From the sequence record OR545379: a stretch of DNA of 39,368 nucleotides, one strand, 5' to 3'. Positions 6,183 to 38,514 of this stretch are shown here, piece by piece (position 1 is the first letter of the stretch; every line of letters begins with the position of its first letter). Position numbers and translations under genes: made by a program. The stretch comes from Escherichia phage Sekstaphage-1. The notes under the pieces were generated by a model. That model was not told where the DNA came from and searched no databases. It saw only the letters and a list, made by a program, of their open reading frames with translations.

Positions 6183-6200
6183 ACGAAAGGAGGAAACATT

Positions 6201-6656
6201 ATGAGAATTTCATTTGACTTAATGAGTCCTTCCTTTCTCTCATGGGATACGGGTCGTCACACTGGCGGCTCTATTCGCAACGGCTATAGAAGGGTTCGTT
6301 ATGAAGGTAAGTGGTTAAACCATCACATACTCATTTGGGAACACTTCAACGGTGCAGTCCCGGAGGGAATGGAAGTAGACCACATTGACCGTAACAAACT
6401 TAACAACGCGCCTAGTAACCTTAGACTTGTGACCCGCTCTGAGAACAACCGAAATCGGTCAGTACACCGGAACAACAAGTCAGGAATCAAAGGTGTCTAC
6501 TGGCACAAACACCGCCAAGTTTGGTACGGTCAGTGTCGAAGGGGCAACAAAACATTTATCACCGCTGGTTGCTCCACGAAGGAACAGGCGGCAGAACTTT
6601 TAGAGAAACTCAAAGAGGAAATTAATTATGATGATTTTCAAAACCGTCCCGTATAA
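6201..6656 (+). CDS. Free-standing HNH homing endonuclease with C-terminal AP2-like DNA-binding domain
   Basis: 151 aa with AAAGGAGG ribosome-binding site; HNH_3-type core WLNHHILIWEHFNGAVPEGMEVDHIDRNKLNNAPSNLRLVTRSEN and AP2-like GIKGVYWHK...KTFITAGCSTKEQAAELLEKL; sits between gene 1.2 and the ligase. Confidence 0.85.
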   Translation: MRISFDLMSPSFLSWDTGRHTGGSIRNGYRRVRYEGKWLNHHILIWEHFNGAVPEGMEVDHIDRNKLNNAPSNLRLVTRSENNRNRSVHRNNKSGIKGVYWHKHRQVWYGQCRRGNKTFITAGCSTKEQAAELLEKLKEEINYDDFQNRPV

Positions 6657-7811: not shown

Positions 7812-8381
7812 ATGCGTTTACACTTCAACACATCAAATGGTATCTTTTCGGTTCGCCGTGAAGACCGCTCTACAGCAGTGGCCTCTGAGCGCAACGCCAA
7901 GCTGCCGCTGATTGGTTCGGTCGTACCATTGTCGCCGCGTGTTCACCTACTGATCACTCGTGGAGAGTTCATTAAAGCGATGAACAAAAAGCGCCCGCAT
8001 CTGGAAGCCGTGGTCACTTACTGGCCTCGCATCCGTCTGTTCATTAAGTGGATTAAGGAGGTTCTTCCGAACAACCTGATTCCGCTGCCTAAAGCTGACG
8101 TTAAGACTCAGAACGTGGAAGCACCGAAGCCAGAAGTCAAGTCTGACGTGACCCACCCGAACCACTACATGCTGTTCGACAACGTGGAAGCCATTGAGAT
8201 TATCGCCCGGTCAATGACCGTCGAGCAATTCAAAGGCTACGTGCTGGGGAACATCCTGAAATACCGCCTGCGTGCTGGTAAGAAATCCGAACTGGCAACG
8301 ATGGAGAAAGACCTTAAGAAAGCTGCATTCTATCAGGAACTCTTTGACAAACACCGGGGGCTGTGTTATGACGCTTCGTGA
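7812..8381 (+). CDS. Single ORF joining a gene 1.6-like N-terminus to a gene 1.7-like (nucleotide kinase) C-terminus
   Basis: 189 aa; residues 1-85 resemble T7 gp1.6 ([20 protein letters not shown]...IKWIKEV); the C-terminus [26 protein letters not shown]...GKKSELA matches the conserved end of T7 gp1.7. Confidence 0.8.
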
Positions 8382-12250: not shown

Positions 12251-12252
<2 letters not shown>

Positions 12253-12298: not shown

Positions 12299-12511
12299 AT
12301 GTTTAAATTCATTAACACTTTAGGTAAGCTGGTAGTCAAACTGTACTTCATCGAAGCCAAGAAGCTGGGCAAGAAAGCCAAAGCTGATTCACAGCGTGCC
12401 ATTGAGTTGGCGAAACAGTCCCGTGAGAAATCCGATGCGGCTGTTAGTGGCGTCCATAAGTCGGCAGCGATTGCAGCCAAAGCGCAGTCCATGAGCAAAT
12501 TCTTTGAGTAA
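12299..12511 (+). CDS. 4.3: Gene 4.3 homolog (function unknown)
   Basis: 70-aa ORF with AGGAGA ribosome-binding site; same length and position as T7 gp4.3. Confidence 0.75.
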   Translation: MFKFINTLGKLVVKLYFIEAKKLGKKAKADSQRAIELAKQSREKSDAAVSGVHKSAAIAAKAQSMSKFFE

Positions 12512-12523
12512 TAGGAGCACAAC

Positions 12524-12808
12524 ATGAGTAAATCAATCAAGCACGCAAACACCATCCGTCTGCCGGACACTGCTGACCAGTTCGCTCGTCGGGTACACAT
12601 TAATGTGCGTGGCGAGAAGGTCACAATGGTCTACCGCTGGAAAGACCACAAGTCTCCGAAGGCACACACTCAGCGTATGACCTTGGACGACAAGCAGGTA
12701 GGCCGCCTGATGGGTGCCCTGACTATGGCTGCTGACAATGTGGTTGGGGATAACCGCGAGCGTCTGGTAGAGTTCGGCGCTGGTATGCAAGAGATTATCG
12801 AGAAGTGA
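12524..12808 (+). CDS. 4.5: Gene 4.5 homolog
   Basis: 94-aa ORF with AGGAG ribosome-binding site; position between 4.3 and the RNase III site before gene 5. Confidence 0.7.
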   Translation: MSKSIKHANTIRLPDTADQFARRVHINVRGEKVTMVYRWKDHKSPKAHTQRMTLDDKQVGRLMGALTMAADNVVGDNRERLVEFGAGMQEIIEK

Positions 12809-12846
12809 TAAACTCAAGGTCGCCCAAGGGTGGCCTTTATGATTAT
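12809..12846 (+). promoter_or_regulatory. RNase III processing hairpin (R4.7-like)
   Basis: TAAACTCAAGGTCGCCCAAGGGTGGCCTTTATGATT. Confidence 0.65.
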
Positions 12847-12875
12847 CATTTAGCACGAAACCAAAGGAGGGCATT

Positions 12876-14834
12876 ATGCTCGTAAGTGACATTGAGGCCA
12901 ACAACCTCTTAGAGAAAGTCACCAAGTTTCACTGTGGCGTCATCTATGACTACCGTGATGGTGAGTATCATAGTTATCGTCCGGGCGACTTCGGGGCGTA
13001 TCTGGATGCGCTGGAAGCCGAGGTGAAGCGAGGTGGGCTTATTGTTTTCCATAACGGTCACAAGTATGACGTTCCTACATTGACCAAACTGGCAAAGCTG
13101 CAATTGAACCGAGAGTTCCACCTTCCTCGTGAGAACTGTATCGACACCCTTGTGCTGTCACGCTTGATTCACTCTAACCTAAAGGACACCGATATGGGTC
13201 TTCTACGTTCCGGTAAACTTCCGGGGAAACGCTTTGGGTCTCACGCTCTGGAGGCGTGGGGTTATCGCTTAGGCGAGATGAAGGGTGAATACAAGGATGA
13301 CTTTAAGCGTATGCTTGAAGAGCAAGGCGAAGAATACGTTGACGGAATGGAGTGGTGGAACTTCAATGAAGAGATGATGGACTATAACGTTCAGGACGTT
13401 GTGGTCACTAAGGCTCTCCTTGAGAAGCTACTCTCTGACAAACATTACTTCCCTCCTGAGATTGACTTTACGGACGTAGGTTACACTACGTTCTGGTCAG
13501 AATCCCTTGAGGCCGTTGATGTTGAACATCGCGCTGCATGGCTACTCGCTAAGCAAGAGCGCAATGGATTCCCGTTTGACACGAAAGCAATCGAAGAGTT
13601 GTACGTAGAGTTAGCTGCTAGACGCTCTGAGTTGCTACGTAACTTGACCGAAACGTTTGGCTCGTGGTATCAACCTAAAGGTGGAACAGAAATGTTCTGC
13701 CATCCACGAACAGGTAAGCCACTACCTAAATACCCTCGCATTAAGATACCTAAAGTTGGTGGTATCTTTAAGAAGCCTAAGAACAAGGCACAGCGAGAAG
13801 GCCGTGAGCCTTGCGAACTGGATACCCGCGAGTACGTTGCTGGCGCTCCTTATACTCCAGTGGAGCACGTAGTGTTTAACCCTTCGTCTCGTGACCACAT
13901 CCAGAAGAAACTCCAAGAGGCTGGGTGGGTCCCAACTAAGTTCACCGATAAGGGTGCTCCTGTGGTGGACGATGAGGTACTCGAAGGAGTACGCGTAGAT
14001 GACCCTGAGAAGCAAGCGGCTATCGACCTCATTAAAGAGTACTTGATGATTCAGAAGCGAATCGGACAGTCTGCTGAGGGAGACAAGGCATGGCTTCGTT
14101 ACGTTGCTGAGGACGGTAAGATTCATGGTTCTGTTAACCCTAATGGAGCAGTTACGGGTCGTGCGACCCATGCGTTCCCCAACCTTGCGCAAATTCCGGG
14201 TGTACGTTCTCCTTATGGAGAGCAGTGTCGCGCTGCTTTTGGCGCTGAGCACCATTTGGATGGGATAACTGGTAAGCCTTGGGTTCAGGCAGGTATCGAC
14301 GCATCCGGCCTTGAGTTGCGCTGCTTGGCCCACTTCATGGCTCGCTTTGATAACGGTGAGTATGCTCACGAGATTCTTAATGGTGACATCCACACTAAGA
14401 ACCAGATGGCTGCTGAATTACCTACCCGTGATAACGCTAAGACGTTCATCTATGGGTTCCTCTATGGTGCTGGTGATGAGAAGATTGGGCAGATTGTTGG
14501 TGCTGGTAAAGAGCGCGGTAAGGAACTCAAGAAGAAATTCCTTGAGAACACACCTGCGATTGCAGCACTACGTGAGTCTATACAACAGACGCTTGTCGAA
14601 TCCTCTCAGTGGGTAGCTGGTGAGCAGCAAGTCAAGTGGAAACGCCGCTGGATTAAAGGTCTGGATGGTCGTAAGGTACACGTTCGTAGTCCTCACGCTG
14701 CCCTGAATACCCTACTGCAATCCGCTGGTGCTCTCATCTGCAAACTGTGGATTATCAAGACCGAAGAGATGCTCGTAGAGAAAGGCTTGAAGCACGGCTG
14801 GGATGGGGACTTTGCGTACATGGCATGGGTGCAT
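12876..14834 (+). CDS. 5: DNA polymerase gene 5, exon 1 (codons 1-653)
   Basis: Collinear with T7 gp5 up to ...[13 protein letters not shown]; the ORF then runs into intron sequence and stops after 7 unrelated codons. Confidence 0.95.
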
Positions 14835-15435
14835 AAACTATTTCATTGTGCACATTAAATCTGGTGAACTCGGTGAAACCCTACTGGGGCAATACCGAGC
14901 CAAGCCATAGGGAGGATATATGAGAGGCAAGAAGTTAATTCTTGAGGCCACTGAGACTGGCTGTATCATCCCTACGTCACACAAACTTAATGCCGATGGT
15001 TATTTCAGAAAGAAAACCAATGGCACATTGGAAATGTATCACAGAACGGTGTGGAAGGAGCATAACGGAGACATACCTGATGGCTTCGAGATAGACCATA
15101 AGTGTCGCAATAGGGCTTGCTGTAACATAGAACATTTACAGATGCTTGAAGGTACAGCCCACACTGTTAAGACCAATCGTGAACGCTACGCAGACAGAAA
15201 GGAAACAGCTAGAGAATATTGGCTGGAGACTGGATGTACAGGCATGGCACTCGGTGAGAAGTTTGGTGTGTCGTTCTCTTCCGCTTGTAAGTGGATTAGA
15301 GAATGGAAGGCGTAGAGACTATCCGAAAGGAGTAGGGCCGAGGGTGAGACTCCCTCGTAACCCGAAGCGCCAGACAGTCAACTCAAAGGCTGATGATATA
15401 GTCCGACACTCCTAGTAATAGGAGAATACAGAAAG
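14835..15435 (+). mobile_element. Group I self-splicing intron in the DNA polymerase gene, carrying an HNH endonuclease ORF
   Basis: 601 nt separate two in-frame polymerase segments; exon 1 ends in U (14834); GTGCAC at 14848-14853 can pair with the exon end GTGCAU giving the U-G pair typical of P1; the intron ends in G (15435). Confidence 0.85.
14920..15315 (+). CDS. Intron-encoded HNH homing endonuclease
   Basis: 131 aa with GGGAGGA ribosome-binding site; HNH/zinc motif DGFEIDHKCRNRACCNIEHLQMLEGTAHTVKTN; lies wholly inside the intron. Confidence 0.85.
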   Translation: MRGKKLILEATETGCIIPTSHKLNADGYFRKKTNGTLEMYHRTVWKEHNGDIPDGFEIDHKCRNRACCNIEHLQMLEGTAHTVKTNRERYADRKETAREYWLETGCTGMALGEKFGVSFSSACKWIREWKA

Positions 15436-15591
15436 GATGAAATCCAAGTAGGTTGCCGTACCGAAGAGATTGCTCAGGTGGTCATTGAGACAGCACAAGA
15501 AGCAATGCGCTGGGTTGGAGACCACTGGAACTTCCGGTGTCTTCTGGATACCGAAGGTAAGATGGGTCCTAATTGGGCCGTATGTCACTAA
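15436..15591 (+). CDS. 5: DNA polymerase gene 5, exon 2 (codons 654-704)
   Basis: Encodes DEIQVGCRTEEIAQVVIETAQEAMRWVGDHWNFRCLLDTEGKMGPNWAVCH, the C-terminus of T7 gp5; in frame with exon 1 once the intron is removed, giving 704 aa. Confidence 0.9.
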   Translation, partial: DEIQVGCRTEEIAQVVIETAQEAMRWVGDHWNFRCLLDTEGKMGPNWAVCH

Positions 15592-35174: not shown

Positions 35175-35436
35175 CGATAAATCTTTGATTCAATTCCTTG
35201 AGATGCTGGACACTGAGATGGCTCAACGTATGCTTGCTGACTTGCAGAACGATGAACGACGCACACCTCAACTGTACAACGCAATCGGGAAACTATTAGA
35301 GCGCCACAAATTCCAAGTCTCCAAGTTACAGCCAGACCGTAACATCCTTGGTGGACTGGCAGATGGACTCGAAGAGTACCAGAACATGGTGGGCGCTGAT
35401 GGTCTCACTGAAGACGAGAAGTACACGCTTAACTGA
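35167..35436 (+). CDS. 18: Terminase small subunit (gp18)
   Basis: 89 aa, the same length as T7 gp18; GAAGGAGGG ribosome-binding site. Confidence 0.9.
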   Translation: MSNDKSLIQFLEMLDTEMAQRMLADLQNDERRTPQLYNAIGKLLERHKFQVSKLQPDRNILGGLADGLEEYQNMVGADGLTEDEKYTLN

Positions 35437-35439
35437 TGG

Positions 35440-35478
35440 TAATACTCAAGGTCATCTTAATGGTGGCCTTTATGGATT
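35440..35478 (+). promoter_or_regulatory. RNase III processing hairpin (R18.5-like)
   Basis: TAATACTCAAGGTCATCTTAATGGTGGCCTTTATGGATT. Confidence 0.6.
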
Positions 35479-35494
35479 ATCAATAGGAGGTGAT

Positions 35495-35896
35495 ATGGAA
35501 GGAATGTATAGAAGTGGTGGTTACTGGAAGGTTACTATAAACGGTAAAGTACACGGTGTACACAGGTTGTTGTGGGAAGCTGCCTATGGCTCAATACCAG
35601 ATGGTTATGTTATAGACCACATTGACAGAGATGGTCTTAATAATTCTCTTGATAACTTACGGTGCATACCGAAGGGAGCTAACAAGGCAAACACTGTATC
35701 CTCAAGGGACTTACCGAAGGGAGTATACTCTCGGTTTGCCAAGCGACTTAACTGCATTGTGTACTATGGGGATATTAGAATGGGAGGTGTGAAGAAAACA
35801 CATGCTCCTACTAAGAATCTGAAGGAAGTCGTGGACTGGTCTATTAAGACTCACAAGCAGATGCTGGGGGAAACATATGGGATTCAAAACAGTTAA
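35495..35896 (+). CDS. Free-standing HNH homing endonuclease with AP2-like domain
   Basis: 133 aa from ATG 35495 with AGGAGG ribosome-binding site; HNH core HRLLWEAAYGSIPDGYVIDHIDRDGLNNSLDNLRCIP; sits between gene 18 and gene 18.5. Confidence 0.85.
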   Translation: MEGMYRSGGYWKVTINGKVHGVHRLLWEAAYGSIPDGYVIDHIDRDGLNNSLDNLRCIPKGANKANTVSSRDLPKGVYSRFAKRLNCIVYYGDIRMGGVKKTHAPTKNLKEVVDWSIKTHKQMLGETYGIQNS

Positions 35897-36332
35897 GAGC
35901 TACGCCATCGCTGTGGCCTTTGCCTTGGGGATGACCCTTGCGTACAACCACGGCTATGACAAGGCTAACACTAAATGGGAACAGGAGGTGCACAATGAGT
36001 ACGTTAAGAAAGTTGAGGCGACTGCGGATAAACAGGCTGCTCTCAATGAAGTCTCACGACAATACCAAGAAGACCTTGCGGCGCTGGAAGGCAGCACTGA
36101 TAGGGTCATTAATGATTTGCGTAACGATGGTAAGCGGCTGTCAGTCCGCGTCAAGAACCTTACCGGACTACCGAAAGGTGACGGTCGATGCGAGTTTGAT
36201 GGTCGAGCCGAACTACACGAGTCAGATGCTAAGCGTATTATCGGAATAGCCCAAGCTGCTGATGCTCACGTAAGAGCGTTGCAGAAAACTATTAAGGAGA
36301 TGCAGAATGAGCGACACCCAAGCAAATCGTAA
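35877..36332 (+). CDS. 18.5: Inner-membrane spanin (Rz-like, gp18.5)
   Basis: 151 aa; N-terminal transmembrane segment [15 protein letters not shown], then [16 protein letters not shown]...[20 protein letters not shown] matching T7 gp18.5. Confidence 0.85.
35995..36249 (+). CDS. 18.7: Outer-membrane lipoprotein spanin (Rz1-like, gp18.7) embedded in gene 18.5
   Basis: 84 aa from ATG 35995 in the +1 frame of gene 18.5; signal peptide with lipobox (VSGC) and Pro-rich mature part; AGGAGG ribosome-binding site. Confidence 0.8.
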   Translation: MSTLRKLRRLRINRLLSMKSHDNTKKTLRRWKAALIGSLMICVTMVSGCQSASRTLPDYRKVTVDASLMVEPNYTSQMLSVLSE

Positions 36333-38070
36333 TGCGCTAATCATTGCGCAGCTTAAGGGTGACTTCGTGGCCTTCCTGTTCGTATTGTGGAAGGCTTTGG
36401 CTCTCCCGCCACCGACTAAGTGTCAGATTGATATGGCCCGGTGTCTGGCTAACGGAGACAACAAGAAGTTTATCCTACAGGCTTTCCGTGGTATCGGTAA
36501 GTCATTCATCACCTGTGCGTTCGTTGTGTGGACGTTATGGCGTGACCCTCAGTTAAAGATACTGATTGTCTCTGCATCCAAAGAACGTGCGGACGCTAAC
36601 TCCATCTTCATTAAGAACATCATTGATCTTCTGCCCTTCTTGGCTGAGCTAAAGCCTCGTCCCGGTCAGCGTGACTCTGTGATTAGTTTCGATGTTGGCC
36701 CTGCCAAGCCTGACCACTCTCCGTCTGTGAAGTCGGTGGGTATCACTGGTCAGTTGACTGGTAGTCGTGCTGATATCATCATAGCGGATGACGTTGAGAT
36801 TCCGTCTAACTCCGCAACTCAAGGTGCCCGTGAGAAGCTGTGGACTCTGGTGCAGGAATTTGCTGCGCTTCTGAAACCGCTGCCGACCTCTCGCGTTATC
36901 TACCTTGGTACGCCTCAAACCGAAATGACCTTGTACAAGGAACTCGAAGATAACCGTGGGTACACCACAATCATCTGGCCCGCGCTCTATCCGCGTAGCC
37001 GTGAGGAAGACTTGTACTATGGCGACCGTCTGGCCCCGATGCTCCGCGAAGAGTTCAACGATGGGTTCGAGATGCTCCAAGGTCAACCGACTGACCCCGT
37101 GCGCTTCGATATGGAAGACCTGCGTGAGCGTGAGTTGGAATACGGTAAGGCTGGCTTCACTTTGCAGTTCATGCTCAACCCGAACCTGAGTGATGCCGAG
37201 AAGTACCCCTTACGCCTCCGTGATGCTATCGTGTGCGGTCTGGACTTCGAGAAAGCCCCAATGCATTACCAGTGGCTTCCGAACCGTCAGAATCGCAATG
37301 AAGAGCTACCTAACGTGGGCCTTAAGGGTGATGACATTCATAGCTATCATTCATGCAGTCAGAACACTGGACAGTACCAACAGCGCATCCTCGTGATTGA
37401 CCCTAGTGGTCGCGGTAAGGATGAGACAGGTTACGCAGTGTTGTTCACCCTGAATGGCTACATCTATCTGATGGAAGCTGGCGGGTTCCGCGATGGTTAT
37501 TCCGATAAGACCCTTGAGTCCCTCGCTAAGAAAGCGAAGCAGTGGAAGGTTCAGACAGTGGTCTTCGAGAGTAACTTCGGGGATGGTATGTTTGGTAAGG
37601 TATTCAGCCCGGTTCTCCTGAAACACCATGCAGCGCAGCTTGAAGAGATTCGTGCTCGTGGTATGAAGGAACTACGCATTTGTGATACGCTGGAGCCTGT
37701 ACTCTCTACGCACCGCCTTGTGATTCGTGACGAGGTGATTCGTGAGGACTACCAGACTGCCCGTGACGCCGATGGCAAGCATGACGTTCGATACTCGTTG
37801 TTCTACCAGTTGACCCGTATGGCTCGTGAGAAGGGCGCTGTGGCCCACGATGACCGACTTGATGCGTTAGCATTAGGTGTGGAGTTCTTACGCTCTACGA
37901 TGGAACTGGACGCCGTGAAGGTGGAAGCTGAGGTGCTTGAGGCATTCTTAGAGGAACACATGGAGCACCCAATCCATTCGGCTGGTCACGTAGTTACCGC
38001 TATGGTTGACGGGATGGAACTCTATTGGGAGGATGACGATGTGAATAGCAACAGGTTCATTGACTGGTAA
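36307..38070 (+). CDS. 19: Terminase large subunit (gp19)
   Basis: 587-aa ORF; size and position of T7 gp19; overlaps the end of gene 18.5 as in T7. Confidence 0.95.
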
Positions 38071-38079
38071 GGAGGTAAT

Positions 38080-38514
38080 ATGTTTGACGTGAGGTATGAC
38101 CCGGATGTGCCGGGGTGCCTCTCTAACTCTAAGGGTGAGCAACTCGCAGTTCTACAAGGAGAATACTTCAAGTGGAACGGCGGGAGTGCTCATCGTATTA
38201 TATGGGAAGGCTTCAATGGGAGGATACCAGACGGTTACATGGTTGACCATATAAACCGCAACAAGCAGGACAATCGGATAGAGAACCTACGACTGGTCAC
38301 TCGGTCCCAGAATGTCCACAACTCCAAGCGTAAGAGGGCCGATGGGATGCCCAAAGGAATTACAGCACGCCAGCGGGACTTTAGGATTCTGGTCCATAAG
38401 GATTGTAAGAAGTACGTAAGGTACGCACCGACACTTGCGGAAGCCATAAAGGTCCGCGAGGAGCTTGTAGAGTCCTTGGGCCTGTCTGCATATTATGTCG
38501 ATTCATCCGCATAA
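38080..38514 (+). CDS. Free-standing HNH homing endonuclease with AP2-like domain
   Basis: 144 aa with AAGGAGG ribosome-binding site; HNH core HRIIWEGFNGRIPDGYMVDHINRNKQDNRIENLRLVTRSQN and AP2-like KGITARQRDFRILVHKDCKKYVRYAPTLAEAIKVREEL; starts 10 nt after the gene 19 stop. Confidence 0.85.
   Translation: MFDVRYDPDVPGCLSNSKGEQLAVLQGEYFKWNGGSAHRIIWEGFNGRIPDGYMVDHINRNKQDNRIENLRLVTRSQNVHNSKRKRADGMPKGITARQRDFRILVHKDCKKYVRYAPTLAEAIKVREELVESLGLSAYYVDSSA

Follow-up and report, generated by a model that had tools for sequence, protein, structure and literature searches.

The polymerase introns of phages PhiI and W31 are 601 nt long and contain a 131-aa ORF named I-TslI (table in PMC1995217). Their insertion site is 881 (E. 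coli Pol I numbering), they belong to subgroup IA2 and they carry the endonuclease gene in P6a (PMC3428280), and the title of Bonocora & Shub 2004 describes the PhiI/W31 intron as self-splicing. Passages of PMC8845596 and PMC8136825 that cite Bonocora & Shub 2009 describe I-TslI as a nicking enzyme of the homing type, responsible for the mobility of the intron and with a core site of 9 bp. A comparable arrangement is found in the T7-like cyanophage Pf-WMP3, whose DNA polymerase gene has an IA2 intron with the HNH nicking enzyme I-PfoP3I encoded in its P6a region; that intron is inserted at site 674 instead of 881, and I-PfoP3I differs from I-TslI in its length of 161 aa and in having its HNH motif near the C terminus (PMC3428280).

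We analyzed a window of 39,368 nt, the whole stretch of DNA taken from Escherichia phage Sekstaphage-1 (OR545379), in which an ORF on the + strand (14920-15315) extends for 131 codons from an ATG start to a TAG stop. The ORF is not a chance reading frame, since it matched Pfam HNH_3 (PF13392) over residues 40-75 with 58 bits and E 7e-16 (gathering cut-off 24.8) and had 183 homologues in the database. Comparison with I-TslI of PhiI (AAV53690.1) revealed 129 identical residues of 131 and 0 gaps (~98%). The sole differences, T36V and M109L, are both conservative and fall at positions that vary among the 50 homologues compared. Our protein and the entry 'I-TslI [Phage PhiI]' were grouped in one 90% cluster, and an exact-sequence look-up revealed that Klebsiella phage VSG32 encodes the same protein too. 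The following features of the protein were assigned.

14920..15315, + strand: I-TslI allele, an HNH homing endonuclease of 131 aa (129/131 against AAV53690, common 90% cluster)
15037..15144, + strand: HNH_3 catalytic core, residues 40-75 (PF13392, E 7e-16; conservation in 50 homologues)
15208..15309, + strand: helix-turn-helix-like C-terminal tail, residues ~97-130 (weak Pfam matches, model helices, fold matches)

The present allele shares with the PhiI and W31 proteins (AAV53690, AAV53693) a length of 131 aa, a 601-nt IA2 intron, a place in P6a and an insertion at the His/Asp codons of motif C; it differs from PhiI I-TslI in T36V and M109L and in residing in a T3-type genome rather than in PhiI. 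We are therefore dealing with the already known, experimentally characterised I-TslI in a known intron, a real but ordinary case, and an earlier sequence-only reading of this locus erred in treating a protein 98% identical to I-TslI as uncharacterised. That the ORF is an allele of I-TslI, situated in the P6a loop of the self-splicing IA2 intron of T7-like polymerase genes, is in our judgment nearly certain. Bonocora & Shub (2004, 2009) reportedly described the enzyme and its intron, where the ORF is placed and how it is related to T3 gene 5.3, and little new is added here.

The HNH_3 core includes D59-H60, C62, C67, C68, N69 and H72, and contains the motif DGFEIDHKCRNRACCNIEH quoted in the sequence-only reading, which was found at residues 53-72. 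Across the 50 homologues, C15, H60, C62, H72, H81 and N86 are among the invariant residues, all of which are kept in the intron ORF, and H21, C67 and C68 are at least 90% conserved. The same reading had spoken of Cys ligands: the Cys residues of the core are indeed conserved, but a role as zinc ligands is suggested by that conservation only. On this basis, the Cys cluster may bind zinc, with C15, H21, C62 and C67/C68 as candidate ligands.

Gene 5, which encodes the DNA polymerase, is interrupted by a group I intron, and the ORF lies inside this intron. The boundaries were assigned as follows.

12876..14834, + strand: exon 1 of gene 5 (DNA polymerase), 653 codons, the last being CAT (His653) (spliced frame compared with T3 gp5)
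14835..15435, + strand: group I intron of IA2 type, 601 nt (RF00028; spliced reading frame; published length; covariation)
15436..15591, + strand: exon 2 of gene 5, 51 codons plus TAA, starting GAT GAA (Asp654, Glu655) (spliced frame)

In unspliced RNA the frame of exon 1 reads into a TAA at 14856-14858. Joining the two exons gave a polymerase of 704 aa with no internal stop, identical to T3 gp5 at 694 of 704 positions. The junction reads AWVH|DEIQV (CAT|GAT) between His653 and Asp654, the H|DE junction predicted from the sequence alone; we take these residues to be His881/Asp882 of E. coli Pol I, in motif C of family A. The intron is preceded by an exonic U (14834) and its last base is G15435. 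Exon ends at 14828/15426, obtained from a pairwise alignment to T3 across diverged flanks, were replaced by 14834/15436 on the basis of the reading frame. Searching the whole window with Rfam at gathering thresholds returned nothing, and the intron was seen only when an E-value threshold was used: RF00028 then matched 14825-15425 over its full model span with 44 bits (E 9.7e-10), below the gathering score of 50. Related introns scored 61 (MQM1, with an ORF) and 58.9 (Arash, ORF-less) against the same model, and the ~400-nt ORF that interrupts P6 is probably the cause of the score below 50. The insertion site, the IA2 subgroup and the P6a placement were derived independently in this analysis, and all fit PMC3428280.

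Public records often show gene 5 as two polymerase genes flanking a 'hypothetical protein', as in Sekstaphage-1 and close relatives including VSG32, and some annotate the polymerase as truncated at the stop codon within the intron. Among the records compared, a joined polymerase CDS was present only in K1F, 13a and MQM1. The practical value of the present assignment is for annotation: gene 5 should be given as one CDS spliced at 14834/15436, and the ORF should bear the name I-TslI.

The window is a genome of T3 type (96.6% identity to T3 in the first 25 kb), and its relation to T3 changes at the intron site. Only 3 mismatches were found over 12300-14828. Another 3 (14829, 14831 and 14834) fall in the 6 nt at the end of exon 1, inside P1, and the 156 nt of exon 2 contain 35 (22% divergence); divergence from T3 then runs on through gene 5.5 to ~15900, ~450 nt downstream, before it drops. 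In the polymerase, 9 of the 10 amino-acid differences from T3 are located at or past codon 652. On sequence evidence, this mosaic looks like the pattern expected from homing with one-sided co-conversion into a T3-type genome, and the sharp boundary with T3 at the intron site would provide a tidy natural example of that process. Ordinary recombination between phages, not initiated by an endonuclease, could also produce such a mosaic.

The comparison with T3 further revealed that gene 5.3, which adjoins the intron-less gene 5 of T3 just downstream, is absent from the Sekstaphage-1 window. The T3 gene 5.3 protein aligns with the intron protein across 95 aa at 48% identity (E 1e-32), possesses the same DH-C-NR-CCN-EH core and N-terminal TGC...SHK segment, and has PHROGs 1872 and 6254 as its top two matches, as does the intron protein. 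It differs in being free-standing, in its length of 101 aa and in having no helix-turn-helix-like C-terminal tail. By these alignments, the free-standing gene 5.3 of T3 is the nearest relative of the intron gene in this phage group, a kinship that the sequence-only reading had overlooked. The two enzymes, gp5.3 and I-TslI, reportedly share their cleavage positions in the intron-less polymerase gene. A passage on Bonocora & Shub 2009 in a review (PMC3984707) speaks of a free-standing enzyme that was 'pre-adapted' to the site at which the intron is inserted. We tentatively entertain a specific history, for which the case falls somewhat short of balanced: a natural I-TslI homing event into T3, with a conversion tract of at most 6 nt upstream and ~450 nt downstream, that deleted the resident gene 5.3 in the same step. 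If this were true, the intron-borne and free-standing forms of one lineage would displace each other in nature, beyond sharing a target in the laboratory. In Edwardsiella phage WAG25P1, an HNH gene that follows the polymerase was considered as a gene 5.3 homologue next to a copy of the intron, and rejected (PHROG 59, BLASTP E 0.065).

The fold of the intron was examined in an alignment, with ORF interiors removed, that included K1F, 13a, PC127, Sal_R1S, SU7, RCIP0053, Vp_R1, MQM1, WAG25P1 and the ORF-less Salmonella phage Arash. The structural elements are given below.

14829..14853, + strand: P1 helix, GUGCAU|AA (14829-14836) with UUGUGCAC (14846-14853) (sequence and Rfam alignment)
14860..14898, + strand: 5' strand of P3 (14860-14866), P4 (14870-14875/14893-14898) and P5 (14879-14882/14886-14889) (covariation)
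14899..14908, + strand: 5' strands of P6 (GCC, 14899-14901) and P6a (CCAU, 14905-14908) (covariation)
15303..15316, + strand: 3' strands of P6a (AUGG, 15303-15306) and P6 (GGC, 15309-15311), and J6/7 (GUAGA, 15312-15316)
15317..15403, + strand: P7 (15317-15322/15398-15403), P7.1 (15323-15330), P7.2 (15335-15363), 3' strand of P3 (15368-15374) and P8 (15375-15379/15388-15392)
15409..15435, + strand: P9 hairpin (15409-15414/15419-15424) with a GUAA loop, and the 3' tail to the terminal G15435 (5/6 pairs compensatory)

In the nine core helices, which together comprise 41 pairs, 99.5% of cells were paired and 20 of the 41 pairs were compensatory, with changes on both sides. None of 500 shuffles reached the observed value, and sliding the partners by 1-3 columns gave 34-44% pairing. 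Compensatory pairs numbered 5/7 in P3, 2/6 in P4 and 2/3 in P5, all cells of these helices being paired, with 2 more in P7 and 3 in P7.2. The P3-P9 core, including the P3/P7 pseudoknot, is thus supported by covariation. P1 places a U14834-G14848 wobble pair at the 5' splice site, and a GUA linker (15332-15334) joins P7.1 and P7.2, which is the IA2 signature according to PMC3428280. The register of P6/P6a was kept in 7 of 8 distinct sequences, with P6a formed by CCAU/AUGG, CUAU/GUGG, ACUG/CAGU or CCUU/AAGG.

This fold puts almost all of the ORF, together with its start codon and Shine-Dalgarno sequence, in the terminal loop of P6a. The peripheral loop proposed from the sequence alone is therefore correct for the start and body of the gene, but not for its end, where the final four codons (E-W-K-A) also supply the 3' strands of P6a and P6 and where the TAG (15313-15315) lies in J6/7, 1 nt from P7. 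Rfam's alignment of the window put the ORF between P7 and P3'; this placement was ruled out by the relatives and by covariation, the true 5' strand of P7 being just past the stop codon. For MQM1, Rfam places the ORF in P6. In RCIP0053 and WAG25P1 the ORF ends 4 nt earlier and J6/7 GUAGA is still present, so the UAG is conserved as RNA structure and not as a stop codon alone. The homologous ORF of Aeromonas phage MQM1 (locus piece 441-869) continues through the 5' strand of P7 and ends in the P7.1 loop.

The sequence-only reading had also credited the gene with its own strong ribosome-binding site, and this was borne out.

14910..14916, + strand: Shine-Dalgarno GGGAGGA, 3 nt before the ATG, in the P6a terminal loop (read from the sequence; conserved)

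Both GGAG and ATG form invariant columns in the 10 homologous introns. Local RNA folding gave no significant sequestration of the Shine-Dalgarno sequence (z-score 0.10). A search for T3-type promoters found 11 in the window and 0 in the intron, the nearest being at 12251 and 17286; since there is no promoter within the intron, the endonuclease gene must be read from the gene 5 transcript. The stretch around the ribosome-binding site, ATAGGGAGGA (14907-14916), resembles the 3' end of T7/T3 promoters and was also considered as one, but gave no match within 3 mismatches.

Taken together with the published work on I-TslI, these features are consistent with the following mechanism. The intron would be transcribed within the gene 5 message, with no phage promoter inside it, and the endonuclease would be translated from its own Shine-Dalgarno sequence, on either the precursor or the excised intron RNA. 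In a mixed infection, the enzyme would nick or cut an intron-less gene 5 near the His|Asp codons of motif C, and recombinational repair from the intron-bearing genome would copy the intron and flanking markers into the cut allele (homing). The intron would then be spliced from the RNA to leave an intact polymerase. In this scheme the Sekstaphage-1 genome would be the product of such homing in a T3-type phage, with T3 gene 5.3 replaced as well. The identity of the protein, the boundaries and fold of the intron, the place of the ORF and the mosaic against T3 come from the present data; that the enzyme is active, that the intron is spliced and in what order the events took place are drawn from the literature or from what we infer.

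At least 80% of the intron was present in 55 of 50,697 phage records, with carriers that include Teetrevirus, Teseptimavirus, Kayfunavirus and Berlinvirus. Copies with 65-70% nucleotide identity were found in the polymerase genes of 77-kb Gordonclarkvirinae coliphages, a 112-kb Vibrio phage, a 63-kb Aeromonas phage and others, and the CAT|GATGA junction is common to SU7, RCIP0053 and WAG25P1. This survey revealed a spread of the intron-plus-ORF unit among several phage groups that are unrelated, and such a distribution implies transfer across phage families. The same distribution bears on whether homing is the main present role of the intact ORF. Its occurrence in distant phage groups means that selection could favour another function, such as marker exclusion or maturase-like help in folding, and the overlap of the 3' end of the ORF with P6, P6a and J6/7 physically links protein synthesis and RNA folding. 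Marker exclusion is reportedly established for related intron endonucleases, those of SPO1 and SP82; it is, however, a consequence of the cleavage itself and not an alternative to homing. Against a maturase, the intron is called self-splicing in the title of Bonocora & Shub 2004, and no HNH protein is known to act as one. A chief role other than homing is unlikely.

In the Salmonella phage Arash (locus piece 849-1120), a 272-nt relative of the intron splits a family A polymerase gene, apparently at another site. Its long P6a hairpin keeps a Shine-Dalgarno sequence and an ATG, from which a stub of 16 codons runs as far as the loop of P7.1; this appears to be what is left of an endonuclease gene after its deletion. 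In the intron copy of Citrobacter phage NS1 (locus piece 657-1257), P6 is altered and enlarged and no polymerase exon 2 follows; possible reasons are permutation of the record, misassembly or degeneration of the copy.

The relation of the intron gene to the other HNH genes of the genome was also examined. Taken literally, the sequence-only reading would assign the intron gene to a different HNH family (zinc-finger, not HNH_3) from three free-standing genes described as HNH_3 plus AP2. When Pfam was searched with HMMER, the check suggested in that reading, the intron ORF and all three free-standing genes (6201-6656, 35348-35896 and 38080-38514) matched HNH_3, the latter with 63-80 bits, so that all four are well above its threshold. 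BLASTP tied the intron protein to each of the three with E 3e-8 to 1e-10 (28-37% identity over 49-72 aa); among themselves the three are 38-61% identical (E ~1e-15). What remains of the claim is a distinct lineage. The best PHROG of the intron gene is 6254 (E 2.9e-47), versus 99 for the free-standing genes, which fall in PHROGs 99 and 4578, and its core, DH-C-NR-CCN-EH, has three Cys and ends in His, versus DH-x-RN-xxN-xxN, with no Cys and a final Asn. The tail is also unlike that of the free-standing three, which further differ in lying outside introns. A zinc-finger assignment would find some encouragement in a weak zf-His_Me_endon match of the intron ORF (E 0.025) and in weak matches of the modelled fold to I-PpoI, which contains zinc, and Smad MH1. 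Taking these data together, the intron gene as an uncharacterised enzyme of a different family is very improbable, given the shared Pfam family and the 98% identity to a named enzyme. By these profile and pairwise comparisons, the four genes belong to one Pfam family with a homologous core, in which the intron gene is an outlier of separate lineage.

The description of the free-standing three as HNH_3 plus AP2 is overstated. AP2 (PF00847) gave no match in the intron ORF, consistent with the absence of an AP2-like tail noted from the sequence, but among the free-standing genes it was detected in 6201-6656 only, at 17.5-20.8 bits and below the cut-off of 33.3, and the tails of 35348-35896 and 38080-38514 gave no match at E up to 10. 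The free-standing three do share an architecture, because common PHROG profiles match them over their full length; naming their tail AP2 is tentative.

Of the free-standing HNH genes, one precedes the ligase gene, another separates genes 18 and 18.5 and the third follows gene 19; they lie in stretches (6184-6626, 35478-35967 and 38070-38508) that have no counterpart in T3 Luria. Because each of the four HNH genes is in sequence absent from T3, they represent four separate insertions. The earlier proposal of an intron-encoded HNH homing endonuclease, acquired separately from the others, is in this respect well supported, both by the HNH_3 match of an ORF inside the group I intron of gene 5 and by a T3-type genome that diverges from T3 at the intron site.

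Least probable of all is that the ORF is a decaying, inactive remnant retained because its 3' end belongs to the ribozyme: decay is a frequent fate of homing endonuclease genes when no unoccupied allele is left (PMC3984707) and the Arash relative has been reduced to its stub, but the present ORF is full length, its two substitutions fall at variable positions with every invariant residue kept, and its Shine-Dalgarno sequence and ATG are conserved.

The structure of the I-TslI allele was modelled with AlphaFold from 50 homologues (pLDDT 85.5). The model has strands at its N terminus, the HNH core, one long helix and, at the C terminus, a pair of helices (108-115 and 119-130). The tail gave sub-threshold Pfam matches to HTH_28, HTH_23 and HTH_Tnp_4, and when modelled it matched helix-turn-helix DNA-binding domains with an rmsd of 1.3-2.0 A. 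A search of PDB sequences with the intron protein returned no real match. The top Foldseek match of the model was I-HmuI of Bacillus phage SPO1 (1U3E), a weak one (E 7e-3, probability 0.96, 150 columns, TM 0.38, rmsd 9.8 A). I-HmuI is likewise an HNH nicking homing endonuclease from a group I intron of a phage DNA polymerase gene, and shows the same succession of N-terminal strands, HNH core, helices and C-terminal helix-turn-helix as the modelled protein. In contrast, it is only 16% identical, has 174 aa and no Cys cluster, and its intron occupies another insertion site in the polymerase.

Elsewhere in the window, a 189-aa protein (7812-8381) combines an N-terminal match to Pfam BC10 ('bladder cancer-related protein', E 1.6e-21) with a C-terminal DUF3310; BC10 is an odd family name for a product of the T3 gene 1.6/1.7 region.
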